Shown here: one piece after another, positions 1 through 14,020 of the stretch | Layout of the letters: each line of letters opens with the position of its first letter | Position numbering within the stretch: position 1 is the stretch's first letter | Made by a program: the position numbers and the translations under genes | Notes under the pieces: generated by a model | Databases searched by the model: none | What the model was told of the DNA's origin: nothing | What the model saw: the letters and a program-made list of their open reading frames with translations, nothing else | Source of the DNA: a virus | Taxonomy: Duplodnaviria; Heunggongvirae; Uroviricota; Caudoviricetes | Strand: one strand, 5' to 3' | Virus record (IMG/VR): IMGVR_UViG_2737471843_000003 | Span: 1-14,020 of that record | Length of the DNA: 14,020 nt

Positions 1-342
1 ATGATGAAAAAAAGTATTCTGACGTTTCTGTTACTCACCAGTTCTGCAGCGGCGCTGGCTGCACCGCAGGTGATTACCGTCAGTCGTTTTGAAGTGGGTA
101 AAGACAAATGGGCGTTTAATCGCGAAGAGGTGATGCTGACTTGCAGACCGGGTAATGCTTTGTATGTCATTAACCCAAGTACCCTCGTGCAGTATCCTTT
201 AAACGATATCGCACAAAAGGAAGTTGCCAGTGGGAAGACTAAAGCCCAACCCATTTCGGTGATTCAGATTGATGATCCTAACAATCCCGGCGAAAAAATG
301 AGTCTGGCACCGTTTATAGAACGAGCTGAAAAACTCTGTTAA
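1..342 (+). CDS. yebY: Small secreted protein with N-terminal signal peptide, DUF2511/YebY-like
   Basis: ORF track 113 aa. The N-terminus [23 protein letters not shown] looks like a Sec signal peptide with an AxA cleavage site. I recognise the sequence as E. coli YebY from memory, not from a search. A hairpin plus T-run follows the stop. Confidence 0.6.
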
Positions 343-371
343 TTACCTAAAATAGCCTTTTGATTTCCAAT

Positions 372-413
372 AAAAAAACCGCCTCAGTTCTTTCACCAGA
401 ACGGGCGGTTTTT
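372..413. terminator. Rho-independent terminator downstream of yebY, A-run / GC stem / T-run, potentially bidirectional
   Basis: AAAAAAACCGCC at 372-383 pairs with GGCGG at 404-408, with an inner GTTC/GAAC pairing, followed by TTTTT at 409-413. The A-run on the other side would make it usable from the minus strand as well. Confidence 0.6.
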
Positions 414-469
414 AACATTTCAGCTGATGACCACCACGCTTTTTATTGACCATTTTGCACGCAAACTGG

Positions 470-500
470 AAAACCTGGCGTCGTCATCTATTCTTAAAGG
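470..500 (+). promoter_or_regulatory. Sigma-S-type promoter for sdsR
   Basis: A -10 element TATTCT at 489-494 preceded by C at 488 (the -13 C typical of sigma-S promoters), placed 6 nt upstream of the proposed SdsR 5' end at 501. No convincing -35 element. Confidence 0.45.
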
Positions 501-569
501 GCAAGGCAACTAAGCCTGCATTAATGCCAACTTTTAGCGCACGGCTCTCTCCCAAGAGCCATTTCCCTG

Positions 570-603
570 GACCGAATACAGGAATCGTATTCGGTCTTTT
601 TTT
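570..603 (+). terminator. Intrinsic terminator of SdsR
   Basis: GACCGAATAC (570-579), loop AGGAATC, GTATTCGGTC (587-596), then TTTTTTT (597-603). Read directly from the sequence. Confidence 0.75.
581..603. other. Putative attL core, the last ~23 bp of sdsR
   Basis: A tyrosine integrase gene ends 130 bp downstream. The terminal 23 bp of ryeB/sdsR has been reported as a recurrent phage attachment site in Salmonella and E. coli. The exact crossover cannot be determined from one junction. Confidence 0.4.
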
Positions 604-640
604 AATTGTATTTAAAATCAATTAGTTGCAAACGTCTCCC

Positions 641-670
641 CGAAATTACTCGAAATTTACTCGAATTTCT
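641..670 (+). repeat. Three tandem 10-11 bp direct repeats, candidate arm-type integrase binding sites
   Basis: CGAAATTACT (641-650), CGAAATTTACT (651-661), CGAATTTCT (662-670), read directly. They sit between the putative core and the int 3' end, like the P'1-P'3 arm sites of lambda attP. Confidence 0.4.
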
Positions 671-734
671 GTATTCCGGTCTTTTTTGGTTATATCACAA
701 CCAAAACACATTTAACAATCCATTTACGTTAAAA

Positions 735-1811
735 TCAGAGCAGTAAGTACGTTTTTTCTCTCTCATCAAGATACATTTTTGTTGTCTTCTCCGATGTGTG
801 GCCAAGTAGACGTTGAGCAAATTCTTCCCCACATGTTTCTTTGTACAATCGTCCAGCCAGGCTTCTGATCTCGTGAAAAGTTGGTGGGTTTTCACTGAAC
901 TGGATACCTGTTAATTTTCTGGCTGCGACAAATTTTTTTGTCAGGCCGTCCGGGTGAATGCTGCCGTCAGGGCTGTTTTTTCTAATCCCGGCACTGATTA
1001 GAAAATCTCCCCGGCTTACCAGGCGGCACCGTTCAACTACTGTACCAAGACGTAAACCAGCGACCGGAAGGCTGAGTGACAGGGGGATAGCAATCATCAT
1101 TCCTGTCTTAATTTGCCTGATGTGAAGACGATCATCATAAATATCACTGAACCGCATATTCGTTATGTCTTCGCGACGTTGTCCTGTTACAAGGGCTAAG
1201 TCCATAGCTAATGGGAACCATGCCGGAAGTTGATCTGCTGCCTCCCTGATGCAGTTGTATGTCTTTAGTTTCAGCCGTTCTCTTGTAACTACTATTTTCG
1301 GTGCTCTTGTTGGCGTTACTGGATTTTGAGATATACGCCCTTCAACAATGGCTTCGCGGAACATATCAGATAACACAGAACGCATTGATCCTGCCATCGT
1401 GTTTTTCCCTCCTTCAATCCACAAATCAAGAAACTCGGCAATATGGCGAGTGGTTATTTCTGTCAGTAAGATCCCTCCTAATTTTTCTTTTATTGTTTCC
1501 AGTTGATTTCCCCGAATTTTATAAGTATTTCTGGACACTTTTCTCCTTATAAGAATCGTTTTGTAACGTTCAATCCAGTCTGCCATAGTAAATGAGTCGA
1601 ACCCTTTAAGTTTTTCAATTAAGGCAGCAGGAGAGTAGTTTTTGTATATATAATGATTTGCTTCAATTGCCTGCGCGATTGCATCTCTTCTTGAAATTTT
1701 ACCTAGTGTAAATTCTTCTTTCGTAAGAGGGTTGCGCCAGTAATATGCTTTGTCCCTCCTTCGATATGTTAAGTTCCTAGGCAAATTGGGATCGTATTTT
1801 TTCCGCTGCAT
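735..1811 (-). CDS. int: Tyrosine recombinase, lambda Int-family integrase
   Basis: ORF track 358 aa. The N-terminus resembles the lambda Int arm-binding domain. The C-terminus carries the catalytic signature [11 protein letters not shown]...[15 protein letters not shown] (R, HxxR, Y). Its start overlaps the xis 3' end. Confidence 0.9.
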
Positions 1812-2058
1812 GTTTTAACTTCTCCAGTAACGGACTGTCTCTCCCTTGTCGCCCATTAGGCTGATGGTGTGTTATATCGGTATCAACCTTATTTGGGTTG
1901 ATATAGAAAGCCTCCGGAACCACCCTGTAACTCCTCCCGTGTAGTTCAGGTGCAGGATAAATGTTTCCATTCCTTGCCCATCGTCTCAGCGTTGATATTG
2001 ATGGTGGGTTATCCGGATATCTGAGTTTTCCCCACGTTTTGAGTGTCACAAGATTCAT
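1777..2058 (-). CDS. xis: Excisionase (Xis-like)
   Basis: The pattern VTLKTWGKL...STLRRWARNGNIYPAPELHGRSY resembles the lambda Xis winged helix. It overlaps int by 35 bp. I prefer the start at 2058 (AGAGG 7 nt upstream) over the track start at 2064. Confidence 0.7.
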   Translation of the reverse strand: MNLVTLKTWGKLRYPDNPPSISTLRRWARNGNIYPAPELHGRSYRVVPEAFYINPNKVDTDITHHQPNGRQGRDSPLLEKLKHAAEKIRSQFA

Positions 2059-2080
2059 TGCCATACCTCTTACGATATGA

Positions 2081-2109
2081 CCGCCAGTAAATATACAGAA
2101 TACTGGCGG
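2081..2109. promoter_or_regulatory. Perfect 9-bp inverted repeat upstream of xis
   Basis: CCGCCAGTA (2081-2089), 11-nt spacer, TACTGGCGG (2101-2109). It lies about 20 bp upstream of the xis ribosome-binding site with no adjacent T-run, so a protein-binding site or RNA hairpin is more likely than a terminator. Confidence 0.3.
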
Positions 2110-2164
2110 ACGTGATTGATTTTTAATAATCAGCTATGAAGTTATAATTTGGATATAATGCAAC

Positions 2165-2353
2165 TCACGAGGGCCGAAGTTTCTCGCAATTAAAATTTAT
2201 CAGCTTTACTTTCTGCTCTCTGGAAACGCCTGCTTCTTTTTTCCCCGAGAGCATTTTTTCGCATTCTGATTTAGTTAGTTTAGATTTTGAATATCTTGTC
2301 CAGTTAGTAGGAGTGCCACCTTCCTTTTCAATAGTGGCGGTAATTTTATACAT
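2165..2353 (-). CDS. Small hypothetical phage protein, 62 aa, at the Rac ydaC position
   Basis: In frame with track ORF 2165..2425. An internal ATG at 2353 is preceded by GGAGG with 5-nt spacing, and overlaps the lar stop by 8 bp. The family is not confidently recognised. Confidence 0.5.
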   Translation of the reverse strand: MYKITATIEKEGGTPTNWTRYSKSKLTKSECEKMLSGKKEAGVSREQKVKLINFNCEKLRPS

Positions 2354-2540
2354 GAACACCTCCATTATTATTTCCAGTGGTTCGTTTATTCCATCGTTCG
2401 AGTGCTTCTTTTTCACTTCCACCATAGCCGGTTCGGGATTCGCATCCGTTACACTTCGCGCGGTAATATCCTGAAATGGCTTTCACCGTTACTGATGGAC
2501 AACCACAAAAAGGGCATGGTTTGACTTTTTCATACCGCAT
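2346..2540 (-). CDS. ralR: Lar-family restriction alleviation protein (RalR-like)
   Basis: Track ORF 2346..2555. The CPFCG...CNGCE zinc-ribbon-like motif and ALERWNKR are typical of the Lar family. A start at 2540 gives 64 aa, the Rac RalR length as I recall it. Confidence 0.7.
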   Translation of the reverse strand: MRYEKVKPCPFCGCPSVTVKAISGYYRAKCNGCESRTGYGGSEKEALERWNKRTTGNNNGGVHV

Positions 2541-2603
2541 TGTCTTTTCTCTCATATAATAAAGTTTTGTGATGGCGGTGAGGCTACACCGCCAAAGTCA
2601 ATA

Positions 2604-3707
2604 TCAGGAGCCGATATATTCTGGTTTCATATCTGTCAGTGTCGTTTTATACGCCTCATATAATTCACCCAGATGTGGTCGTGCAGCATTCAGCGTATTT
2701 TCCAGAGCAGTAAATTTTTGTTCTGCTTCTGGATCACCTGATGAAGGCAGGTCATTTATCATCTTCTCGATACTGGCAATAGCATTGAGACGGTGATGAC
2801 GCCGAACCACTTTTCCTTTAAGCTCGGCAAAGAATTCGCCGATCTGGTTTTTCTGATCCTCTATCTCTTGGCGTAATGCAGTGGTTTCCTCAGTCGTGGC
2901 CGCGCTTTCTATACGCTGCCGGAATTCATCAATCCACGCTTCGTCAATACGCTGTTCGATGGTTTCTGTTCGCTGCTCGCTTACCTCGCTATAATTCTGT
3001 ACCGACACAGGATTGATGATTTTTTCCTGTGGCTCTTCCAGTTCGTCCGGGGTATACACGCCCAGGATGACGTCAGGACAATAAAGGCGAGCCCAGTATT
3101 TCAACGCCAGATAGGCGAGCTGTTGTTTCGGGTTTGAGGTCCATAAAGGAGAATTACGCGTAATCACGCTGGAAAGAAACACCGGTTCTCCCCAGGTAAT
3201 CTCACTTTCACCGCGAAGAACTGCACCAACTCGAACTGAGAGACCATACTCATCTTCACTGGTCCAACATGGGATCGTTTCTTTTTTCTCATAGATTCCG
3301 CCTCCTTTGGCCGTTTTCTTAACGATCTCCACTCGGGTGCGAGAGCATTTCTCCCAGTCTCCCTCGTACTTGTAATGGAAGCGACCTACAATTGCACTTG
3401 AGCTAGAGATCACAGCGTTAACCAGTTGTGCTTCATAACCCAGAACTCCGTTTACCAGGTGTGTTTTCTGAGCCACAGCGTAGGGGTTCATGCCCCATTG
3501 CATAGCTTGCATGATGATTGCCATGCAGTCGGCAGGATTTCCGCGAAGGTGATCGGGAACTGTGACGGTGGCCTGTGCCATCAACCCGGCTACTGCCTGA
3601 AGTTGCGTCAACGCCTGAACGTTAAAAATAGTGTTACTGGCAGAAATGGTATTTGGTGTCTGCTCTGTCGTGATGATATTGGTATTTTGCATGGTCAGGT
3701 TCTCCAT
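2604..3707 (-). CDS. Single-strand annealing protein, RecT/Redbeta superfamily, partner of RecE
   Basis: ORF track 367 aa. The core ADCMAIIMQAMQWGMNPY...VNGVLGYEAQLVNAV fits the RecT/Redbeta pattern. It sits immediately downstream of recE with a 1-nt stop/start overlap. It is clearly not the canonical 269-aa K-12 RecT sequence. An alternative start at 3692 has GGAG upstream. Confidence 0.7.
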   Translation of the reverse strand: MENLTMQNTNIITTEQTPNTISASNTIFNVQALTQLQAVAGLMAQATVTVPDHLRGNPADCMAIIMQAMQWGMNPYAVAQKTHLVNGVLGYEAQLVNAVISSSSAIVGRFHYKYEGDWEKCSRTRVEIVKKTAKGGGIYEKKETIPCWTSEDEYGLSVRVGAVLRGESEITWGEPVFLSSVITRNSPLWTSNPKQQLAYLALKYWARLYCPDVILGVYTPDELEEPQEKIINPVSVQNYSEVSEQRTETIEQRIDEAWIDEFRQRIESAATTEETTALRQEIEDQKNQIGEFFAELKGKVVRRHHRLNAIASIEKMINDLPSSGDPEAEQKFTALENTLNAARPHLGELYEAYKTTLTDMKPEYIGS

Positions 3708-6700
3708 TAAGCCAGATGCAGTGCTTCAAGACGACGAAGATCAAAGTCGTTTAATTCGTCGGTATAACTTTCGGTAATCGGTGCTGGCCAGTTGTTTGTC
3801 TCCAGGGCTTCGTTTATCTGGCGTAGCGTCCGGCGATATTCCTGTCGACCAAGTTCAAGGAGTTCCTGCGAGGCTTCCACGACTGCCACCCAGTGATAGC
3901 CAGCATCTTTGTTGACGAAGATCCAGAAAAATTTGTCCAGGTTTGCCACATCGCAATACATTGCGGCGCTGAGGTGATAATCACGCTCAATAATTTCACG
4001 GTGCAGGCGATCTTTAAGTCGTTCCTGCCGCACATAACCGAGGCTGACTGACTTCACGTCAGCGCAAATGCTTTCGTATGGCAGCCGGATTTCGATATCA
4101 GGACGGACCCTGATTTCCAGCCCGGTTTCTTCATCAAACCCGAAATAGCTGATTTCAGATTTGCGATCCGGGTGGTTGAGTAGCCTTGCTGCATCGGTAT
4201 TGTTTTGCAGTGCCGCGTGAATATTTTTTGCCTGTTCATACATATCCGGACTGATAAACGTTTTCCCGGCGTTTTCTTCTTGCTGGCGTTTTTGCCAGTC
4301 CTCCAGTGTCACCAGTTCCGGGCGAATTTTCCGTGCGATTTCGGTTAATTGCTCTTTTGTGCCACTGATGTTGTAAGGCAAAGATTTAGCACGTTCTTTT
4401 TTTGCCAGTTCTGGATCTACAGTTTCAATTTGATCCAGAAGCTGCTCCCGTGCTCCACTGGTTTTCAACAGAGGAGGGAGGCTTGCGTTGTATTCTTTAA
4501 TACAGGCTTTCATTGCTGATGCTGTGTGTTTTTCCCCCTCAGGAATACGCCGAAATTCCACCGGAAGCGAACCGTAAAGGATGCCTGTTTCTTCGGCCCC
4601 AGCACTTACAGACAGTGGCTGTATAAGAGTGCTGTTGTAGCTTTCGATCCACTCTTTCATCTGCTCTGGTGTCATCAGTGCTGGCAGACTGGCATTGTGT
4701 TTTTTAATGATGGCGATCAGTTCGTTAGAAGTAGTAACCACATATTCAGGAACCGGTACCGGAATGGCATATTCATCTGCGAATTTATCCGTTTCCAGAA
4801 CATAGCTGTGAATGATCCGCCCACGCAGCAGTGCGTCACTTTCCTCGTTCGGAATAGTTCCGGCAATGTGCCGCCCGTGGTAATACATCAGGCTGATACG
4901 GGCATCCTTCAGCATCGTGCTGCTTATTCCGTTGGCGGAGTGATAAACCTCGTTCGGGAGGTTTTCATAGCGGCCTGGCTCGAAATATGACGGCCACATG
5001 ATTTCAGTTGCTACAGGAGCTGACGCTTCGCCAGTTTCATCACTGCAATTGCGATGCGGATCGCTGTCAGCATTCTCATTGTGCTGATGTTCAGCGCCTT
5101 CCATTTCCTCCGGATCTTTTTCCAGAGATTCATCCAGATTTTCTTCATTAAATGTTTCCTGATACGTTGCGTCGCCCATCGCCGCGCCACAATCAGGGCA
5201 GTTGCCCCCACCGATCTGACCGCAGGCGGTGCAGACTTTTTCCGGTTCTTGTTGCTCTTCTGGTTCAGGCTGTTTCGTTTCTGGCTCGTTTTGTTGCGTA
5301 TTTGGGCTGTTTTGTTCCGCTTTCTTGTCGTTCTGTTCCGTTTCTTGCTGGTTCTGGTTCACAGAGTCGAGGGTTTCAATCCCCTTAACCCATTTCGGAT
5401 CGTTCGGGTCGCTAATCCCTTCAACAAATTCTCCGCGAGAGGCAGCCAGTAATTTGTCTGCATCGACAGGATTTTTGGGCGGAATGTTTTTCCGGGCTTC
5501 ATGGAGTTCTGCCCGCAGTTTCTGATATTTCGCATCAACAGAATTTACCTGTGACTGAGCATCCAGCGGCTGCGTGTTCTGATGATGTTCAGTTGCATTC
5601 GGTTCCACTGTTTCAGCCGTTGCCTGTTCATCTGCCATTGCGCCAGATGGTTGTGGTTTTTCTTCATCGTCCTGTTTTCCTTCTTCTGTTACTCGCTGCG
5701 GCATCGGGGCAGAGGAGCGACCGCAGGCAATATCCACGATTTCCGGATCAGGGTTGGCATGATCGGTTTCAGTCAGTACTTTGTTCAGATATTCAGTGAC
5801 GTGTGCGGGGATGACCTCGATCCCAATTGGTGCTTCTTTCACGGACGCAACCACGATGGCGCGGGAATAATCCAGCCCGCCAGGCATGGTGATGAATTTG
5901 TCGCGGAAAACAGAAAAGGGTGGTTTATTTTCAGCGATAATTTCCTCAATGCGTTTAGCGTGTGCCGGATGAAGGTTATAAATGTCCACGTCCATTGAAC
6001 GGGCCAGTACGCCAGTGGCTACATCGCGTGCCAGTGACGTCAGATCGTGGACGAAACCTTCGCCGCGATCGGTGAGGTTCCCGCCGCCAGCATTAGCACC
6101 GGAAGCCGTGCGAGTGATGCGTGAAACACGATTTCCTTTCATCCACTCTTTTGTCAGCAGACCGCGATCGGTGTAGTCTGCGTCCAGGTATGCTTCGAAA
6201 AAAGCAGTCATCAGCCCCAGACTTGAATTGCCTGGATTAGGGAAAACTTTGTCAGTATCACGAACCAGTCTGTGAAGATCGCGAATCTCCAGCGGGTCGA
6301 GCAGGCTGGTTTTGTGGGAAACAGCTAGGGCAGTAACAGCTGGTAGTTCTTCGGCCCGTGCAATATGTAATGTCTGGAGTTCGTCGCGTGAAACGTGCGT
6401 TACCGGTTTTTCGCTGCCGTGTTGAGCAAGCCAGCGAATGGGCAGCTCTTGGCCAGAAATCGGGAGTAGCATATTCTCCTCAATCTCAGTCATGTCTTCG
6501 CCATTAACATTGGTATTGTCAGTGCTGTCTGGTTTGTACTGCGCAGAGGATGAGGGCGCGATAAATACCATTGTGATGCCATCTTCCCCGCCTTTTTCGT
6601 AACGGTTGCAGAATTCCGTATCAAATACGCCTTCTGGTGGAAGGTCATCAACAACGGGCAAATTGACGCGAACAGGTTTTTTAAAGTCATCTTCATCGTA

Positions 6701-6856
6701 GCCAGCATCGTCAATCGCAACAGCACCACGGGAGATGGCAATGGATAATTTTTTCGCTTCAGCCCAGTAGAAACCGCCTTTAATACCGAGACGTTTTCTT
6801 ACTTTGTCATTTTTTGCTTCGTAATACAGTGGGTAAACTTGTTTATCGGTGCTCAT
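3707..6856 (-). CDS. recE: Exonuclease VIII (RecE-family 5'-3' dsDNA exonuclease)
   Basis: ORF track 1049 aa. The C-terminal domain carries PD-(D/E)xK-type residues (RPDIEIR...CADVKS) and long stretches I recognise as RecE-like. It is about 180 aa longer than the 866-aa K-12 RecE as I remember it. Confidence 0.85.
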
Positions 6857-6926
6857 TGTTTTTTAACCTCAACTCAGATTAAAATTACTGCGAGTGATGA
6901 ATAAATGTCCCTGGTTCTTCACTCAG

Positions 6927-6957
6927 GCCTGCACAGTGTGCAGGCTTTCTTTTTTTC
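6927..6957 (+). terminator. Perfect hairpin with T-run in the racC-recE intergenic region, terminator-like only on the plus strand
   Basis: GCCTGCACA (6927-6935), G, TGTGCAGGC (6937-6945), then TTTCTTTTTTT. On the minus strand, which is the operon strand, the hairpin is preceded by an A-run and has no U-tail. Confidence 0.35.
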
Positions 6958-7231
6958 AGATTTCACCTTTTAATTTCATTGCAATCAGAGTTGCCAGAAA
7001 TTCGGCTTTTTTTTCTGCGGGCAGATTCTTTCCTATGTGCACCAGACACATTTTTTTAACACCATCGTTAAGTGTTTTAACGTTGCCTGATGGACCGTCG
7101 ATATCAACCACAGTGAATGGGGTTTCTTTATTTTCTGTCTTAATCACGTAGCCAATACGCTTTCCTTCCAGGCTGACTTCGTGAACAATGTCATCGGTAG
7201 TTACAACAGTGGCTTCATAACTGGTAATCAT
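6956..7231 (-). CDS. racC: RacC-like protein, 91 aa
   Basis: Track ORF 6956..7279. The ATG at 7231 is preceded by AAGGAG with 6-nt spacing and gives 91 aa beginning MITSYEATVVTTDD, recognised as Rac RacC. Confidence 0.75.
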   Translation of the reverse strand: MITSYEATVVTTDDIVHEVSLEGKRIGYVIKTENKETPFTVVDIDGPSGNVKTLNDGVKKMCLVHIGKNLPAEKKAEFLATLIAMKLKGEI

Positions 7232-7305
7232 GTTTTTCTCCTTAATTAAGGTTGAGCGAATCTCTGCCATTTCTGGCATAAATTCAGTTTCGAATAGTCA
7301 ATTAA

Positions 7306-7476
7306 TTAAAGTTCGTGTGCCATCTGGTCTTTTTCGGCACAGATTTCACTACAATATTTTTTCATTTCCGTCGTTGGTATAACTCCACGCATGAAATGAA
7401 GTGGTCTTGTAATGATTTTGCTTTCTTCAATTTCTTTATTGCAAAGGTGATAAGCACATTTTATTTTCTTAGTCAT
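7306..7476 (-). CDS. ydaE: Small Cys-rich protein, 56 aa, YdaE-like
   Basis: Not in the ORF track because it is under 60 aa. Hand translation gives [56 protein letters not shown]. Its ATG overlaps the kilR TGA stop (ATGA). Its size and position match Rac ydaE. Confidence 0.6.
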   Translation of the reverse strand: MTKKIKCAYHLCNKEIEESKIITRPLHFMRGVIPTTEMKKYCSEICAEKDQMAHEL

Positions 7477-7697
7477 CACCATGACTCCGCCTTTACAGGT
7501 AAACCATCACGACCGAGGAAGACTTTAATCATGCGGTCAGTAATGCATGTTTTTGTGGTCAGGTTACGAATATAAAGTTTTCGCTTTTTAATATTGTTTG
7601 CCGAGGCGATATATGTCCGACCTTCATGAAGAACATAATCGCCAGGAGTCACACACTGACGTGGTATTTCATCAGTTCCGAAGTGATGAGCAATCAT
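7476..7697 (-). CDS. kilR: KilR-like cell-division inhibitor, 73 aa
   Basis: Track ORF 7476..7709. The ATG at 7697 is preceded by GGAG and gives a 73-aa protein beginning [15 protein letters not shown], recognised as Rac KilR. Confidence 0.75.
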
Positions 7698-8106
7698 AAT
7701 TATCTCCATTTTTACAAATGAATTTTGTCGATGCGGTGCCTGGTGCCTCCAGGTGACGTTAACCAGTTAACAATTAACGCCGGATATTTCACCCATAACT
7801 CTGCTACGAAGGACAATAGCTTTTTAACTGTTCCGCGTGCGCTTAGCCGCATTCACCGCATCACAAAATTCACTTTAAAAAGGGGCGGCAGGGCAGCCAC
7901 GGAGTAGAACTGATGCCGCCAAAGACTACACACAGCAATGTCGTTATTTACAACCGGAGGCGCACTCCCACCATTTAAATTTAACAGACAAAACCGACTC
8001 TTTATGAATACCGGAAATGCGCCTTCGTGTTGTGCGCCTGTCTTTTTACCACTTCAGGCTCGGTGGTATACTGGAGTTCTCACACAACCAGTAATAAGGT
8101 ATTCCT

Positions 8107-8301
8107 ATGGATAATAAAGACAAAGCCTGTCTACTTGCTTTAGCTTTCAGCATCAGATCGCAGCGAGAAACAACTCATCAATAATTTTTCTCGGAAATCG
8201 AGAATGCTGAGAATGAGTTTTTGTCACTACTCAATGAACGTGATGCTAAAAAAAGCGCCGATTCACTTAAGGCTTGGGCGAAACTAGGCTCTTCAAAATA
8301 A
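8107..8301 (+). pseudogene. Small ORF interrupted by an in-frame TAA: 25 codons, stop, 38 codons
   Basis: ATG at 8107 gives MDNKDKACLLALAFSIRSQRETTHQ, TAA at 8182-8184, then in the same frame FFSEIENAENEFLSLLNERDAKKSADSLKAWAKLGSSK ending at TAA 8299-8301. An extended -10 (TGgTATACT, 8064-8072) lies upstream. Its 3' end overlaps the convergent 72-aa gene. Confidence 0.3.
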
Positions 8302-8485
8302 TTGCTTCTGTAGCGGCATGAACAACTGTTTTTGCCGCCTCTTCAACTTCCTTGTCTGGACGACCAGCCTTTACTTTTTCTGCAATGACCTCCAGCACAG
8401 TTGGAAGAACCTTGCTAATAAGCATGGCTGCCACATCTTTGCTGCACAATTGACCGTTAATAACAACCAGATCTTCACCAACCAT
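8267..8485 (-). CDS. Hypothetical small protein, 72 aa
   Basis: Track ORF 8267..8542, whose first codon is TTG. The internal ATG at 8485 is preceded by AAGGGGA. It is the first gene downstream of the candidate pL-like promoter. Function unknown. Confidence 0.45.
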   Translation of the reverse strand: MVGEDLVVINGQLCSKDVAAMLISKVLPTVLEVIAEKVKAGRPDKEVEEAAKTVVHAATEAIILKSLVSPKP

Positions 8486-8660
8486 CTTTTTTCCCCTTAA
8501 CGCCGGGTGGCGGAACGTTTTATCTACTGCGCTTTGTATCAATCAACAACTGCCGTCATGTTCGTATGCCTCAGGCTGGCTACTTAGCCCTATTCAGTGG
8601 CTGGATAACTCGAGGTATTGTCCTGCCGTTCTCTGGTGGGGCGTTGTTTGGATATGGCAA

Positions 8661-8689
8661 ATGCTCACATATCGTGAGTGTTTTGTCAA
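8661..8689 (-). promoter_or_regulatory. Candidate pL-like leftward promoter with an operator palindrome in its spacer
   Basis: On the minus strand: TTGACA (plus 8684-8689), 17-bp spacer, GAGCAT (plus 8661-8666, weak -10 with TG upstream). The perfect palindrome CTCAC-N5-GTGAG at 8664-8678 overlaps the spacer and -10 and matches the operator motif found between the repressor and ydaS. Confidence 0.4.
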
Positions 8690-8730
8690 CTCAATATGTG
8701 AACAATGTTGCTTTTGGATTTTTGATGGAC

Positions 8731-8765
8731 AAAAAAAAGCCCTCGCTAATAGCGAGAGCTTTTTG
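8731..8765. terminator. Rho-independent terminator downstream of the repressor gene, bidirectional shape
   Basis: A8 (8731-8738), GCCCTCGCT (8739-8747), loop AAT, AGCGAGAGC (8751-8759), then TTTTT. One mismatch in the stem. Confidence 0.6.
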
Positions 8766-8790
8766 ATTGGAATCGAGGGAGATTAAAGGC

Positions 8791-9180
8791 TTAGGAGGAT
8801 TTTTTCTGTTGCCTGCTTCTTAGATATTTTTCCACATACTCATCAAGCTCTTGAAGACGGATTTCGAACAGATCAATCATGCGTGCTTGTTCCGATCCTG
8901 GGAGCTGATTAAACAGTTCTAGCATTTTTTTCTGGTTATCATTTAACCACGAGTAAGTGTTTTCCTGTTCACCGAACATTAATTCTGCGGGGGAAATGCC
9001 TAGTACCTGGCCGAGGATGATCGCATCCTCAGCCCCCACACTCCTGGTGCCAGCTTCGTAGTTAGCAATACGAGAAGAACCTGACCAACCACATAGTTTT
9101 GCCAGGTTTCCCATACTTAATCCTCGATTTAGGCGAGTGGCTTTTAGTCGCTCGCCTATTTGTTCTGCAATGGTTTTCAT
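8791..9180 (-). CDS. XRE-family HTH prophage repressor (cI/RacR-like), 129 aa
   Basis: Track ORF 8791..9285. The HTH region is LSMGNLAKLCGWSGSSRIANYEAGTRSVGAEDAIILGQVLGISPAEL. I prefer the ATG at 9180; the track start at 9285 is a TTG that would overlap the ydaS start. The gene is divergent from the Cro-like gene. Confidence 0.8.
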   Translation of the reverse strand: MKTIAEQIGERLKATRLNRGLSMGNLAKLCGWSGSSRIANYEAGTRSVGAEDAIILGQVLGISPAELMFGEQENTYSWLNDNQKKMLELFNQLPGSEQARMIDLFEIRLQELDEYVEKYLRSRQQKKSS

Positions 9181-9274
9181 AGCTCCGATTTTATCACGAT
9201 GTGTGAAATTAGCGGTACTCACATATCTGTAGTTGATCTTGCTCACGAAATGTGAATAATAGAAACAGGAGGTA
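9181..9274. promoter_or_regulatory. Divergent promoter/operator region with three operator-like sites at ~24-bp spacing
   Basis: TCACGATGTGTGA (9194-9206), CTCACATATCTGTAG (9218-9232, half-site match) and TCACGAAATGTGA (9243-9255). Rightward promoter: TTGATC (9233-9238), 16 bp, AATAAT (9255-9260). Leftward -10 TAAAAT (plus 9188-9193) sits 7 nt from the repressor ATG. Confidence 0.6.
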
Positions 9275-9277
9275 ATG

Positions 9278-9520
9278 ATGAACAAAATTTCAACATATCG
9301 AAAACAGCTTGGGCTGTCTCAAAGACAACTTGCTGTTCAGTTAGGGTGGATACAAAGCCGACTGGCAAATTACGAAGCAAATTTTCGTACCCCTGGGCTA
9401 GAGGAGTGCAGAAAAATTGTTTCTACCCTTAATCGGCTTGGCGCTCATTGTGGACTTGACGATGTATTCCCCCCAGACGGTAAGCATAGCGAAAACAGCA
9501 TAGGAGCGGTTGATTCATGA
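9278..9520 (+). CDS. ydaS: Cro-like HTH protein, YdaS-like
   Basis: Track ORF 9275..9520. AGGAGG at 9267-9272 favours the ATG at 9278. The HTH region is LGLSQRQLAVQLGWIQSRLANYE. It is the first gene of the rightward operon and its stop overlaps the ydaT start (ATGA). Confidence 0.7.
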   Translation: MNKISTYRKQLGLSQRQLAVQLGWIQSRLANYEANFRTPGLEECRKIVSTLNRLGAHCGLDDVFPPDGKHSENSIGAVDS

Positions 9521-9939
9521 AAATCAGGCATGAGCATATCGAATCAGTGTTGTTGGCCCTGGCAGCCGAAAAAGGGCAGGCGTGGGTCGCTAACGCAATT
9601 ACTGAAGAATATCTGCGCCAGGGGGGCGGCGAATTGCCCCTTGTACCAGGCAAGGACTGGAACAATCAGCAGAATATCTATCACCGTTGGTTGAAAGGTG
9701 AAACGAAAGCGCAAAGGGAAAAAATTCAGAAACTGATCCCTGCGGTTCTGGCAATTCTTCCGCGCGAGCTGCGTCACCGACTCTGCATCTTCGATACCCT
9801 GGAACGCCGTGCATTACTGGCGGCGCAGGAAGCGTTGAGTACGGCAATTGATGCGCATGATGATGCAGTCCAGGCCGTTTACCGGAAAGCACATTTCAGC
9901 GGTGGTGGGTCGCCCGGCGATTCTGTCGTAGTGCATTGA
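9517..9939 (+). CDS. ydaT: YdaT-like protein, 140 aa, reported as a toxic prophage protein
   Basis: ORF track 140 aa. I recognise the sequence MKIRHEHIESVLLALAAEKGQAWVANAITEEYLRQGGGELPL as Rac YdaT from memory. It is translationally coupled to ydaS. Confidence 0.75.
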   Translation: MKIRHEHIESVLLALAAEKGQAWVANAITEEYLRQGGGELPLVPGKDWNNQQNIYHRWLKGETKAQREKIQKLIPAVLAILPRELRHRLCIFDTLERRALLAAQEALSTAIDAHDDAVQAVYRKAHFSGGGSPGDSVVVH

Positions 9940-9983
9940 TTGAAATTAATCGTGCCGGATTGTTTTGTTCGGTATCAGTTAAA

Positions 9984-10004
9984 TGTAACGCTGCGAGCGT
10001 TACA
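9984..10004. promoter_or_regulatory. Perfect 21-bp palindrome 12 bp upstream of the ydaU-like start codon
   Basis: TGTAACGCT-GCG-AGCGTTACA with 9-bp perfect arms, read directly. The same core recurs inside the downstream gene. Confidence 0.45.
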
Positions 10005-10016
10005 AGGTGAAAACAA

Positions 10017-11153
10017 ATGGCTTCAAACTGGATAAAGCTCGAGGTTATTACGCCGGATAAGCCGGAAATATTCAGGCTTGCTGAGATTCTGAATATTGAT
10101 CCAGATGCCGCATTAGGGAAGGTTATTCGCTTCTGGGCATGGGCGGATCAACAAATGATAGACGGTAATGCAGATTGTAACGCTCGCGGCGTTACAAAAA
10201 GTGCAATAGATCGCATCACTTTTATGGCTGGTTTTGCTGATGCGTTAATTCAGGTTGGATGGCTGGTCGAAAATGACGGTGGGCTTTCTCTACCTAACTT
10301 TGAACGTCATAACGGAAAAAGCTCTAAAAAACGGGCGGTTACAAACGAGCGAGTTACAAAAATACGCGAACTGAAACGAAAAGGTAACGCTGGCAGCGTT
10401 ACACAAACGGATCAAAAAGCGTTACCAGAGGAAGAGGAAGAGGAAGAGGAAGATCTAAATACTGATCTAACCCATCCCAAACCCTTCCCTTCCGGAAGGG
10501 AGTTTCGGGATTTTGTGGCTGGAGTGCTTGAGGGGAGATTATCTGGCGGTACTGCAGCGGAATTTTGTAATTCTGCGGTGGTGGCGTTGCAGGCCGCTGG
10601 CCTGGATGTCTGTCGTGAGTATCCGGTACCAGAGCGTGGAGACGGTTGCGGAGGTCGGATTGATATCGTCGTGACTGACAGGAACGGTGTCCGGTGTGGG
10701 ATCGAACTTGACCGAAATTCTCCACGACAAAAATCACTGCTCAAAATCGGCGCTGTTGAAACCGGGATATGTGTCTTGCGGCGCAGTGATATCGCAAGGC
10801 ACACCGAGCAGGGAATTCTGGTTATCGGTGGGGCTGTTCGCCAGAAAAAATTTGACCCGTTGTCAGTTGATCTGCCCGACTGGTTGCCAGAAACACTCTG
10901 GCATGAGTGGGTCCAGTTCAGGCAGGCATTGCGAAAACCGATTCGAACGGAGCAGGGCGCTAACGGGGCGATACGGGAACTGGAAAAATTCCGTCAGCAG
11001 GGGTTTACACCTGAGCAGGTGATTCGACACAGCATCGCCAATGAATACCAGGGCCTGTTCGCGCCGAAAGGTGTTCGGCCTGAGACGTTGCTCCGACAGG
11101 TTAACACCGTCTCGTTGCCGGACAGTGCGATCCCGCCAGGCTTCAGGGGGTAA
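10017..11153 (+). CDS. ydaU: Replication initiator / replisome organiser, YdaU-like, with a poly-Glu linker and an extra central domain
   Basis: ORF track 378 aa. The N-terminus MASNWIKLEVITPDKPEIFRLAEILNID...VIRFWAWADQQ resembles the DUF1376 N-terminal pattern of lambdoid initiators. It sits just upstream of the DnaC-like gene. It is longer than the 285-aa K-12 YdaU as I recall it. Confidence 0.75.
   Translation: MASNWIKLEVITPDKPEIFRLAEILNIDPDAALGKVIRFWAWADQQMIDGNADCNARGVTKSAIDRITFMAGFADALIQVGWLVENDGGLSLPNFERHNGKSSKKRAVTNERVTKIRELKRKGNAGSVTQTDQKALPEEEEEEEEDLNTDLTHPKPFPSGREFRDFVAGVLEGRLSGGTAAEFCNSAVVALQAAGLDVCREYPVPERGDGCGGRIDIVVTDRNGVRCGIELDRNSPRQKSLLKIGAVETGICVLRRSDIARHTEQGILVIGGAVRQKKFDPLSVDLPDWLPETLWHEWVQFRQALRKPIRTEQGANGAIRELEKFRQQGFTPEQVIRHSIANEYQGLFAPKGVRPETLLRQVNTVSLPDSAIPPGFRG
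10176..10425. repeat. Iteron-like array of GTTACA-core repeats inside the initiator gene, candidate ori
   Basis: TGTAACGCTCGCGGCGTTACA (10176-10196); direct GTTACAAA half-sites at 10338-10345 and 10353-10360; palindrome GTAACGCT-GGC-AGCGTTAC (10384-10402); half-site AGCGTTAC (10418-10425). A-rich stretches lie between them. Confidence 0.45.
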
Positions 11154-11159
11154 CAGACC

Positions 11160-11906
11160 ATGAAAAATATTGCGACAGGAGGCGTTCTGGAGCGTATCCG
11201 CAGACTGACCCCACCACATGTAACCGCCCCATTCAGAACGGTTGCGGAGTGGCGCGAGTGGCAACTTGCTGAAGGGCAGAAACGTTGCGAGGAGATCAAC
11301 CGCTTGAATCGTCAGTTGCGGGTGGAAAAAATCCTGAATCGCTCTGGCATCCAGCCGTTGCACCGCAAATGTTCGTTTGCGAATTACCAGGTGCAGAACG
11401 ACGGCCAGCGATACGCGTTAAGCCAAGCGAAATCCATCGCCGATGAACTGATGACCGGGTGTACAAATTTTGCGTTCAGCGGAAAACCTGGTACCGGGAA
11501 GAACCATTTAGCGGCAGCTATCGGGAATCGCCTGCTGAAAGACGGTCAGACAGTGATTGTGGTTACCGTGGCTGATGTTATGAGTGCCCTGCATGCCAGC
11601 TATGACGACGGGCAGTCAGGCGAAAAATTTTTGCGGGAACTGTGCGAAGTGGATCTGCTGGTTCTTGATGAAATTGGCATTCAGCGCGAGACGAAAAACG
11701 AGCAGGTGGTACTGCACCAGATTGTTGATCGCCGGACAGCGTCGATGCGCAGCGTGGGAATGCTGACAAACCTGAACTATGAGGCCATGAAAACATTGCT
11801 CGGCGAGCGGATTATGGATCGCATGACCATGAACGGCGGACGCTGGGTGAATTTTAACTGGGAGAGCTGGCGTCCGAATGTCGTCCAGCCAGGAATTGCG
11901 AAGTAA
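11160..11906 (+). CDS. ydaV: DnaC/IstB-like AAA+ helicase loader, YdaV-like
   Basis: ORF track 248 aa. Walker A motif [15 protein letters not shown] and Walker B LLVLDEIG are present. It lies immediately downstream of the initiator gene. Confidence 0.85.
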
Positions 11907-11928
11907 TTTTTACCGGGAGAAAAATTTA

Positions 11929-12690
11929 ATGGAGACTGTTTTTGACGCACTGAAAGCAATGGGAAAAGCCACATCCTTAGAACTTGCTGCGCGACTTGGT
12001 ATCAGTCGTGAAGAAGTGCTGAACGAACTATGGGAACTGAAAAAAGCTGGTTTCGTTGATAAAAGCGCGTACACCTGGCGTGTGGCTGATAACAACGTTC
12101 AGCAGGAACAGCCAGCGCCGGAAGAACAGCCGGAAGAAACCACCACGGCAACAGTAGCGAAAATCTCAGAGTGCGATTTAACCGCGACGATTGAACAACG
12201 CGGACCACAAACGGCGGATGAGCTGGCTGCGTTGTTCGGTACCACATCACGCAAAGTAGCTTCAACGCTGGCAATGGCAATCAGCAAGGGGCGTCTGATT
12301 CGCGTAAATCAGAACGGTAAATTTCGTTACTGCATACCGGGCGATAATTTACCAGCAGAGCCGAAAGCTGCATCGGTAACGGAAACTGATGGTAAGGCCT
12401 TTCCTCAGCCCGCAGGTGTTGCGTTACCAGTACAGGAAGCGGCAACACAGGAAGATATTAAAACAGAAACTGTGGCGGACATTGTGCAGTCGCTGCCATC
12501 GTTCACCGAAACGCGAGCGGATGACCTGATTTTACCATCGCTGCATATGGCAAACCGCGAACTGCGTCGGGCGAAAAGTCATGTCCAGAAGTGGGCGCGA
12601 GTCTGCGCCGCGCTGCGGGAGCTGAACAAGCACCGGGATATTGTTCGACAGATTACTGATTCTTCCCGCCGTGTTGTATCGGAAAAGTGA
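11929..12690 (+). CDS. Hypothetical phage protein with two winged-helix-like segments
   Basis: Track ORF 11878..12690. Two ATG starts are possible: 11878 (GGAGAG upstream, overlaps ydaV) and 11929 (GGGAGA upstream). The segments [30 protein letters not shown] and [30 protein letters not shown] look like winged-helix folds. Function unknown. Confidence 0.55.
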
Positions 12691-12705
12691 TTGCCGGAGG
12701 CACTT

Positions 12706-13128
12706 ATGGCAAAAGTATTTACACAAGAAGAGCGGGAAAAAATTAAAGGGCAGGTTGTTGAGCTAGTACGCCGGAGTGGGCGCGAGACGTTACGGCAACT
12801 GGAAGCCAAGACAGGTGCGACAAGATATCTGATGAGCGTTCTCGCCAGAGAGCTTGTTGCCAGTGGCGATGTATACAACTCTGGTTACGGGTTATTTCCG
12901 TCTGAACAGGCCCGTAAGGACTGGCAAAACGCCCGCAAAAAACTCTCCAGGGCAAAGGTGAAAAAAACGGTTGTGGTTGATCCTGACCTTATCTGGTCAT
13001 TACCAGACGGAGAAATACGCCGCTACGACAGGCGCCTGAATATAATCTGTCGCGAGTGCCGGAAGAGCGAAGCTATGCAGCGTGTACTGGCTTTCTATCA
13101 GGGTAATTTTCAGGAGGTAGCGCAGTGA
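12706..13128 (+). CDS. Hypothetical phage protein, 140 aa
   Basis: Track ORF 12691..13128, which begins with TTG. The ATG at 12706 is preceded by GGAGG with 5-nt spacing. Its stop overlaps the GTG start of the methyltransferase gene. Confidence 0.55.
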   Translation: MAKVFTQEEREKIKGQVVELVRRSGRETLRQLEAKTGATRYLMSVLARELVASGDVYNSGYGLFPSEQARKDWQNARKKLSRAKVKKTVVVDPDLIWSLPDGEIRRYDRRLNIICRECRKSEAMQRVLAFYQGNFQEVAQ

Positions 13129-13598
13129 GTGCACCGGCAACCATTCTTGATATGTGCTGTGGCAGTCGCATGTTCTGGTTCGATAAGAATGACGACCGGG
13201 CGATATTTAGCGATATCAGAAAGGAAGAGCACACATTGTGTGATGGACGACGCTTGATTATCAGTCCTGATCTGATAGCTGATTTTCGTGCACTACCATT
13301 TGCAGACGCATCTTTTTCGATGGTTATATTCGACCCTCCGCATCTTGAGCGTGTTGGTGATAACGCCTGGATGGGAAAGAAATATGGACGGCTGAATAAA
13401 GATACCTGGCGTGATGATTTGCGGCAGGGATTTAAAGAAGCCTTTCGTGTGTTGCGTCCATCCGGCGTTCTGATTTTTAAATGGAATGAAACGCAAATAC
13501 CTGTTCGCCAGATATTGATACTGACCGACAGAAAACCTGTTATCGGTCAACGAACAGGAAAAAACGATAAAACCCACTGGATTATTTTTATGAAATAG
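13125..13598 (+). CDS. Small SAM-dependent amino-methyltransferase, DPPH motif, RsmD/N6-adenine-MTase-like fold
   Basis: ORF track 157 aa. Motif I-like ILDMCCGSRMF and motif IV-like IFDPPH occur in the order typical of N6A/N4C/m2G amino-methyltransferases. The GTG start has AGGAGG 7 nt upstream. No target-recognition domain is evident. Confidence 0.65.
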   Translation: MSAPATILDMCCGSRMFWFDKNDDRAIFSDIRKEEHTLCDGRRLIISPDLIADFRALPFADASFSMVIFDPPHLERVGDNAWMGKKYGRLNKDTWRDDLRQGFKEAFRVLRPSGVLIFKWNETQIPVRQILILTDRKPVIGQRTGKNDKTHWIIFMK

Positions 13599-13744
13599 GC
13601 ATCCAGTGAGTAGGTTCGTAAGGTTACAGATACGTATATCTGAATAATTAAATTTAGTTCTGTAAATAAAATTTAATCCTTAATCGGAGGGATTTCTGCA
13701 CCCTCAAATCATCAGGAGGCCGCCCGAAAGGGCGGTAGTGAAAA

Positions 13745-14020
13745 ATGACTGAATTAACCAAAGAGCAATTAATCGAAGAGGCCAAATTAAAAATAGCGAT
13801 TGCGAAATGCCACCCCAATTCAGGGTTGGCACGAGTAGAGGGTGAGTTATTCAAAATTGCTCTGGCATCACTGGAGCAGAATGCACTATCGGGCAACTCT
13901 CCGCTTATTCCTGGTGAAGTGTTGTCCGCAATCCGGGAGGTTGCCAGGATTCGCGCCGATTTCGATGATTTTGACGGTGACAGGCGAGGTATCGGTGATT
14001 GTCTGGATGAGGCCGAGCAA
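13745..14020 (+). CDS. Hypothetical protein, 5' partial ORF running off the window end
   Basis: ATG at 13745 and an open frame to 14020 (92 codons, MTELTKEQLIEEAKLKIAIAK...). It is missing from the ORF track because it has no stop within the window. The upstream signal is weak. Confidence 0.45.
   Translation, partial: MTELTKEQLIEEAKLKIAIAKCHPNSGLARVEGELFKIALASLEQNALSGNSPLIPGEVLSAIREVARIRADFDDFDGDRRGIGDCLDEAEQ

Follow-up and report, generated by a model that had tools for sequence, protein, structure and literature searches.

In iteron plasmids the initiators (RepA, RepE, pi) are winged-helix proteins, and the half-site is repeated directly at the origin and inverted in operators. In bacteriophage lambda, four palindromic 18-bp iterons with starts 20-24 bp apart are followed by AAAAGAAAAAAGAAAAGA within gene O, and two iterons together with the adjoining tract suffice for unwinding (PMC7466680). 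In phage SPP1, oriL, embedded in gene 38, comprises AB boxes to which the replisome organiser binds and an unwinding element next to them (PMC5737612), and the prophage Rac has been reported to carry an active origin, oriJ (PMC3945230). Here we analyse a 14,020-nt stretch of viral DNA (IMG/VR record IMGVR_UViG_2737471843_000003, positions 1 to 14,020; hereafter the window), a Rac-like lambdoid prophage of Escherichia coli, and we argue from comparison of sequences that positions 9984-10470 are probably its replication origin, situated inside and just ahead of the prophage's own initiator gene, because repeats resembling initiator sites end beside a distinctive tract at a domain junction of the encoded protein, as they do in lambda and SPP1.

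The repeat unit is a 21-bp palindrome, (T/G)GTAACGCT-N3-(A/G)GCGTTACA, present in three copies (P0, P1 and P2; Table 1) that lie 192 and 207 bp apart, and it is joined by three half-sites (at 10338, 10353 and 10418), all in the same orientation, with half-site spacings of 15, 45 and 23 nt. An initial annotation, made from the letters of this DNA alone, had placed a cluster of four to five copies of a GTTACA-core motif in 10176-10425; such a cluster is indeed present there as two full palindromes and the three half-sites, although the last half-site passes the end of that interval by 1 base and P0, which like the 27-nt all-purine tract had gone unremarked, lies outside it. The A-rich stretches seen between copies correspond to A-runs that follow the right arms (GTTACAAAAA at 10191 and 10353, GTTACACAAA at 10398), and the proposed local enrichment is borne out within the window: with up to 3 mismatches, GTAACGCTNNNAGCGTTAC is matched 3 times, against 0.02 expected from shuffles, and for the core GTTAC/GTAAC, 9 occurrences in 9980-10430 compare with the 0.86 that the remainder of the window would predict (Poisson P = 3e-7). 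P0 ends 13 nt 5' of the initiator ATG, its right arm reaching the Shine-Dalgarno region (AAGGTG), whereas P1 is translated as C-N-A-R-G-V-T, and P2, the half-site that abuts the tract and the tract itself make up codons 123-146, where the N-terminal domain ends. The 8-mer GAGTTACA at 10351-10358 matches GCGTTACA at 7 of 8 positions, and no DnaA boxes were found in the region. A degenerate extra left arm, GGTAATGCA, lies directly 5' of P1 at 10164-10172; the four codons that contain it are missing in relatives of 65-70% identity (GNADCNARGVT in the window, GNAGSVT in those relatives), which suggests a 12-bp duplication of a half-site.

By analogy, this layout would be of a known kind, that of the in-gene origins of lambda and SPP1. 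As in lambda, the candidate origin falls within the initiator gene at the junction of the N-terminal DNA-binding and C-terminal domains, its dyad-symmetric sites (ATCCCTCAAAACGAGGGA in lambda) are followed by A-runs, a tract that is purine-rich on the coding strand comes after the last site and is adjoined by P2 and a half-site here and by two sites in lambda, and related prophages exchange the sites along with the N-terminal domain. The likeness to lambda that the initial annotation drew holds for the presence of iteron-like sites within an initiator gene, but not for their arrangement, for the window has no compact array of four closely spaced tandem iterons of 18-19 bp: only a single palindrome and a single conserved half-site stand next to the tract, and the other palindromes are 192-207 bp off, one in the coding sequence of the domain itself and one upstream of the gene. 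Moreover, the N-terminal domain falls outside Phage_rep_O, the place of an A+T-rich block is taken by a polypurine repeat of 52% A+T, and the partner protein is DnaC/IstB-like rather than lambda P. The locus resembles SPP1 G38P/oriL in having a candidate origin in the organiser gene, with repeats and an adjacent candidate element for unwinding, and some Phage_rep_org_N genes, which are of the SPP1 type, carry an (AGAGA)n tract after repeats of their own; unlike SPP1, however, the initiator has no Phage_rep_org_N match, and repeats and hosts differ. The direct and inverted half-site arrangements of iteron plasmids both recur in the initiator's family, yet Pfam detected no Rep family homology and the sites of the window lie within coding sequence.

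A tblastn search with the N-terminal domain returned 59 phage records, from 96% down to 32% identity, with hosts in Escherichia, Enterobacter, Salmonella (epsilon15), Klebsiella, Xanthomonas, Ralstonia, Pseudomonas and Vibrio, and the addition of about 320 further loci from IMG/VR gave 171 distinct N-domain proteins, for which 166 equal-sized regions of the same loci and shuffles of the 171 served as controls. Two in-gene palindromes (19-22 bp, with matching arms) occur in 11 of the 12 phages that were fetched, the Vibrio phage having one clear palindrome. Under a strict test, two perfect palindromes with the same 7-nt arm are present in 89/171 homologues, compared with 1/166 controls and 0/171 shuffles, and under a relaxed test, at least two palindromes sharing arms are present in 138/171 N-domains, compared with 3/166 control regions. 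On inspection, nearly all of the 33 N-domains that fail the relaxed test carry the same half-sites close to the tract, several of them as direct arrays with a period of 11-12 nt (GTAACGC four times in locus L203, GCGGACA-like units five to six times in L170, and CCGTCTACA-like units four times in L102), and the spacings of same-orientation half-sites peak family-wide at 11, 12 and 23 nt, that is, at one or two helical turns. The last palindrome is always found where the N-terminal domain ends, +337 to +423 from the ATG, and the first at +146 to +160 in most lineages and at +62 to +65 in the epsilon15/phiPSA1 lineage, while an upstream, P0-like copy is missing in most homologues, which keep the two in-gene copies. 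Arm sequences differ by lineage (GTAACGC, GTCACGC, GTAGACG, (T)GTCCGC or CTAACG) and agree within one genome. Among 49 close relatives (loci with protein identity of at least 85%), the three palindromes vary almost solely in the central 3 nt (GCG, TAC, GTG, CAC or CTG in P0) or the adjoining base, and the arm cores are nearly invariant.

These sites are under selection at the level of the DNA and not of the peptide. In 55 distinct proteins, chosen solely by the peptide G[NH]A..VT, the glycine codon at P1 is GGT in 55/55, against a background of 19-26%; AAC for Asn is paired with GTT for Val in 43 of them and CAC for His with GTG for Val in 9, the other 3 being exceptions, and no further synonymous codon ever occurs. 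The change from Asn to His at P1 is thus accompanied by a silent change of the Val codon that restores the inverted symmetry. An earlier codon test on palindrome-bearing loci was circular at the site codons, and its background frequencies alone were used. Selection on the DNA follows from these fixed and compensating codons, from the non-coding position of P0, and from the differing frames in which the sites are read, P1 and P2 giving GNAGSVT and VTPTAL in phage TL-2011b. The statement in the initial annotation that each copy encodes Val-Thr in frame is accurate for four copies in the window (V59T60, V108T109, V113T114 and V128T129), but not for the half-site at 10421, which reads Ala-Leu-Pro in another frame, nor for the copy at 9999, which is non-coding.

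The most conserved element of all is the polypurine tract, and a half-site that abuts such a tract is found across the entire family. This half-site matches the genome's own palindrome arm in 103/131 homologues, at a median of 11 nt past the palindrome, and the abutting 5-mer has 3.2 occurrences in the 130 nt upstream, compared with 0.16 in a downstream control. A pure purine run of at least 15 nt occupies the place of the tract in 89% of the 171 homologues and in 0.45% of 1775 control windows. The layout typical of relatives is ...GCGGACA-AAAA-GCGGACC-AGAGAAGAG..., and that of the window is ...AGCGTTACA-CAAACGGATCAAAA-AGCGTTACC-AGAGGAAGAGG.... The tract is of the type (AGAGA)n in 111 homologues and (GAGGAA)n in 24, all of the latter among the window's closer relatives and including the window; (GAGGAA)n varies in length from 15 to 35 nt among close relatives (L015-L094), in steps that keep the frame, much like a microsatellite. 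Across 134 homologues, the 20-60 nt past the last palindrome exceed the gene mean by 10-20 points in A+T and by 18-33 points in coding-strand purine, and in the window 10427-10470 is 61% A+T and 80% purine, compared with gene-wide values of 49% and 56%. Translated in frame, (AGAGA)n gives R-E-E-K-R-R-E-E, and the Arg codons of the REEKRRE motif in 89 proteins are AGA in 261/261 cases, as opposed to 10% AGA elsewhere in the same genes; the conserved REEKRRE or poly-Glu motif therefore appears to be dictated by the DNA element and not by protein function.

The tract is moreover not confined to this family of initiators. An exact search for 23 nt of (AGAGA)n in IMG/VR found at least 120 loci; among the 120 matches listed, 90 lie in the family of the window's initiator and 30 in other proteins. 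Ten of these 30 were compared with Pfam, two of which match Phage_rep_org_N, two Lin1244_N (one also, weakly, DUF1376) and six no family, and initiator-like genes outside the family that carry (AGAGA)n are found at loci L333, L346, L352, L361, L370, L373, L378, L392, L405, L413, L432 and L448. Judged by eye, many of the non-family loci have short tandem repeats of their own right before the tract (for example, approximately three copies of GTGTCCCGAGA in L346, three of a 21-bp unit in L378, approximately three of GCAACGCCAT in L392 and approximately four of GATAACGC in L448), while an automated k-mer repeat test of these loci had a background of 42% and was uninformative. That (AGAGA)n follows differing sets of repeats argues that the tract is a shared module, as would be expected of an opening element. 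Neither the tract (AGAGAAGAGAAGAGAAG) nor the peptides REEKRRE and EEKRREE are described in the searchable literature, an absence that is no proof of novelty, and full-text matches were limited to papers on Drosophila satellites and an unrelated paper on a eukaryotic helicase.

Which protein binds the sites is suggested by gene linkage and by the exchange of cassettes. The initiator is the sole gene common to all contexts, its neighbours being ydaT and ydaV here, a methylase and RuvC in epsilon15, DnaB in Raharianne, and others elsewhere. The prophage Rac of E. coli K-12 has the same order of repressor, cro-like gene, ydaT, initiator and ydaV, and its DNA is homologous to the window through ydaT (9511-9937, 93%), ceases to be so over 9938-10844, and becomes homologous again from 10845 (94%, the initiator C-terminal domain with ydaV). 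This break implies that P0, the N-terminal domain, the in-gene sites and the tract have been exchanged as one cassette. The K-12 cassette is unrelated to that of the window: it encodes an N-terminal domain of the DUF1376 type and has a different in-gene repeat, GATGTTCAAACA, in 5-6 copies including an inverted pair (L001 4261-4660), whereas the window has an additional, intergenic palindrome. The ydaU repeats of K-12 are followed by AAGATCTAAAAACAGATC and then by C7-TAAAT-C7G5, and a near-identical AAGATCTAAATACTGATC stands at 10450-10467 in the window; this repeat region of ydaU is probably the core of oriJ, an equation that we infer. At the place equivalent to the perfect palindrome at 10486-10501, K-12 ydaU and phage CBW1004C-Prop1 have palindromes of C-runs and G-runs. 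An exact scan for GTAACGCT-N3-AGCGTTAC in 596 Gb of species-representative genomes is meaningful only for the fraction of its matches that is linked to the gene: among the 120 matches listed, 54 are within 700 nt of a homologue of the N-terminal domain, in hosts that range from Proteobacteria to Planctomycetota, Verrucomicrobia and Oscillospiraceae. Taken with the selection on the DNA, the change of sites along with the N-terminal domain and the tract, this lends strong comparative support to the suggestion of the initial annotation that the initiator has iteron-like sites of its own here and that these mark a candidate origin.

The initiator is the 378-residue open reading frame in the order integrase, recT, recE, repressor, cro-like gene, ydaT, initiator and ydaV, and comprises an N-terminal domain (residues 1-150), a nuclease-fold insert (approximately 151-276) and a C-terminal domain (277-378). 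Residues 1-150 match phrog_2509, 'replication initiation protein' (E 5.1e-86), of which the protein is therefore a member, residues 159-272 match phrog_1347 (function unknown), and residues 271-378 match phrog_6451, 'primosomal protein' (E 5e-36), and phrog_678, 'O-like'. Pfam gave no family for the whole protein at E up to 0.01, none for residues 1-138 at E up to 10 and none for the middle domain; the N-terminal domain specifically lacks a match to Phage_rep_O (PF04492), DUF1376 (PF07120) or Phage_rep_org_N (PF09681), no plasmid Rep family was matched by the whole protein or its N-terminal domain, and the C-terminal domain has no PF17948 match even at E up to 10, a family that is present in some homologues of the N-terminal domain. 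A search of NCBIfam likewise gave no usable family, the DnaT equivalog NF002770 scoring 15.7 bits against a cut-off of 201 and over the last 19 residues only. In BLASTP, residues 277-378 alone align with K-12 YdaU (89% identity over 102 residues), so that the earlier label of a ydaU-like initiator is apt for the C-terminal domain and not for an N-terminal domain that is neither of the DUF1376 nor of the lambda O type. A YdaU-type C-terminal domain followed by ydaV is found in the window, and the ydaV-like product matches IstB_IS21 (E 1.5e-19) and Bac_DnaA (E 1.3e-8) in Pfam. An AlphaFold model of the N-terminal domain (mean predicted local distance difference test score, pLDDT, 70.8) has two helices, a loop and then a helix-helix-hairpin, and its low-confidence loop (residues 50-56, pLDDT below 50) is exactly the peptide encoded by P1.

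Some part of 9900-11200 is matched in 1425 of 5426 complete E. coli genomes, yet only 38 of them cover at least 80% of it, and the initiator gene is therefore a mosaic, whose protein escapes naming models. In the closest relative, E. coli E9 (L002 9118-10248), the Prokaryotic Genome Annotation Pipeline (PGAP) splits the equivalent gene into two partial pseudogene fragments, whereas the reading frame of the window is intact. The nuclease-fold insert, which comes directly after the tract, is missing from the otherwise collinear Rac of E. coli 442/2; at approximately 77% identity this domain is also found within initiators of the lambda O and DUF1376 types, and relatives of it exist as free proteins of about 110 residues.

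Table 1 Features of the candidate origin and its surroundings, in coordinates of the window
Feature	Position	Strand	Remarks
Repressor gene	8791-9285	minus	
cro-like helix-turn-helix gene	9275-9520		
ydaT	9517-9939		
Palindrome P0, TGTAACGCTGCGAGCGTTACA = TGTAACGCT-GCG-AGCGTTACA	9984-10004		Perfect; between ydaT and initiator gene
Replication initiator gene, 378 residues, three domains	10017-11153	+	PHROG matches
Coding sequence of N-terminal winged-helix-like domain, presumed to recognise the sites	10017-10331	+	
Palindrome P1, TGTAACGCTCGCGGCGTTACA = TGTAACGCT-CGC-GGCGTTACA	10176-10196		Within N-terminal domain coding sequence
Half-site GTTACAAA, right-arm orientation	10338-10345	+	
Half-site GTTACAAAAA, right-arm orientation	10353-10362	+	
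Palindrome P2, GGTAACGCTGGCAGCGTTACA = GGTAACGCT-GGC-AGCGTTACA	10383-10403		End of N-terminal domain, start of linker
Half-site AGCGTTACC, abutting the polypurine tract	10418-10426	+	Starts 23 nt past P2 right-arm core
All-purine tract AGAGGAAGAGGAAGAGGAAGAGGAAGA, 27 nt, built on (GAGGAA)4, poly-Glu; candidate unwinding element	10427-10453	+	
A+T-rich stretch AAGATCTAAATACTGATCTAA, two GATC sites	10450-10470		
376-bp insertion encoding PD-(D/E)xK nuclease-fold domain	10469-10844	+	
Perfect 16-bp palindrome TCCCTTCCGGAAGGGA, 3' of tract	10486-10501		Near start of insertion
Coding sequence of C-terminal domain, in common with K-12 YdaU, presumed contact of helicase loader/primosome	10845-11153	+	
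ydaV-like gene for DnaC/IstB-type ATPase, presumed helicase loader	11160-11906	+	Pfam; named ydaV in relatives

Binding by the initiator, opening of the DNA and a start of replication within 9984-10470 are what we infer from these sequences, and they could be brought about as follows. The unit of recognition would be a half-site of approximately 8 bp, GCGTTAC(A/C), which occurs as three 21-bp palindromes and as single half-sites, and to which the winged-helix-like N-terminal domain would bind, as dimers where half-sites form palindromes and as a monomer where one stands alone at 10418-10426. The bound complex, possibly by bridging sites about 200 bp apart, would destabilise the polypurine tract and the A+T-rich stretch with its GATC sites (10427-10470), and the C-terminal domain, which K-12 YdaU also possesses and which is akin to O-like and DnaT-like domains, would then recruit the host's DnaB through the DnaC-like YdaV. 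Since P0 stands beside the ribosome-binding site, it may also allow the initiator to limit its own synthesis, a role compatible with that of an origin.

Several observations weigh against an origin of this kind. The tract is 100% purine but only 52% A+T, and so is not a classical A+T-rich unwinding element; the spacing of the palindromes differs from the compact arrays of lambda and is more like that of dispersed operators; and conservation of the half-sites at 10338 and 10353 stops at the closest relatives, so their role is uncertain. Mutual information between arm class and columns of the N-terminal domain tracks clades and is therefore no proof of direct recognition. Furthermore, prophages of the Rac type are often defective, and the element may be inactive in this strain.

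The unusual composition of the tract admits a different account of opening, in which there is no simple melting driven by A+T content. The purine repeat would in that case be a distinct and widespread origin-opening element of several unrelated families of replisome organisers, acting as a polypurine mirror repeat: transcription of the initiator gene would leave the pyrimidine template paired with a purine-rich transcript in a stable R-loop, or a triplex would form, and either would yield a single strand, and perhaps a primer, on which the DnaT-like or O-like C-terminal domain could assemble the helicase, the peptide REEKRREE being a mere by-product of translating a DNA signal. We regard this account as tentative and, on balance, unlikely.

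The palindromes could alternatively be operators only, by which the initiator or another phage regulator limits transcription or translation of the replication operon, with the origin elsewhere. The position of P0, 13 nt before the ATG and touching the ribosome-binding site, is what might be expected of an operator, sites about 200 bp apart resemble operators that act by looping, and the initiator dimers of iteron plasmids (RepA/RepE) repress their own synthesis by binding inverted half-iterons. Nevertheless, a promoter scan found no sigma-70-like promoter overlapping or neighbouring P0, and most homologues lack the upstream copy and yet keep two copies within the gene. The last site abuts a polypurine tract, in the proportion of homologues given above, that is also found after the repeats of unrelated initiators, and the direct half-site arrays of relatives, with their period of 11-12 nt, are typical of origins. 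Autoregulation and origin function are, in addition, not mutually exclusive, and we consider a role as operators alone improbable.

Slightly less probable still is that the primary start lies elsewhere and that the initiator-bound sites serve as a secondary or late origin or as a fork barrier. In SPP1, G38P is reported to bind a second site, oriR, which may stall forks (PMC3485210), and three dispersed palindromes could have separate roles. There is, however, no further copy of the palindrome within the window, and the locus, with its sites next to a polypurine tract, is laid out as primary origins are (PMC7466680, PMC5737612).

That the palindromes act in messenger RNA, as hairpins for stability, processing or translational coupling, with the tract a feature of the RNA or a protein linker, we hold to be very unlikely. 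As a single strand each palindrome does fold well (-7.6 to -9.4 kcal/mol, z about -4.4), transcription of the operon takes in every copy, and P0 abuts the ribosome-binding site. Hairpins, though, require complementarity and not a fixed sequence, yet the arms are identical within a genome and from Escherichia to Xanthomonas; relatives have direct repeats of the same half-site in place of palindromes, and these cannot fold into hairpins at all; and mismatches between arms show no wobble excess (G:T type, 16; A:C type, 19). An Rfam search of the region returned two chance-level matches only (E 0.9-1.0, far below gathering scores) and hence no family. On the minus strand, P2 followed by CTTTTCGTTT (10384-10402) scores as terminator-like for antisense transcription; terminator-like sites in the region, this one included, are present in a number at chance level. 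Finally, that the repeats simply reflect a repeated peptide motif (xNAxxVTx, poly-Glu) or arose by chance, and have no function as DNA, is scarcely credible, for although four copies encode Val-Thr in the same frame and the tract encodes a plausible acidic linker, this is contradicted by the tests of frame (P0 is non-coding, the half-site at 10421 is in another frame, and frames differ among lineages), of codons (synonymous positions are fixed against codon bias, with compensating changes, and every Arg codon of the tract motif is AGA) and of enrichment (0.02 palindromes expected by chance).

An origin in this place would thus add to a known kind an uncharacterised family of N-terminal domains with lineage-specific half-sites and the placement of one site within the coding sequence of the domain itself, together with a polypurine repeat that is common to several families of initiators. 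It would provide a concrete candidate origin for a large family of initiators that has no Pfam model and whose gene is named inconsistently by PGAP, in phages and prophages of many bacterial phyla, and the same layout recurs in hundreds of related phages. A sequence rule for finding such origins would be at least two copies of one lineage-specific half-site, the last of them joined to a polypurine tract. The pairs of lineage-specific half-sites and N-terminal domains would amount to a natural set of orthogonal origin and initiator pairs for engineering, and the presence of one tract across unrelated replisome organisers points to a common mechanism of opening, undescribed in the searchable literature.

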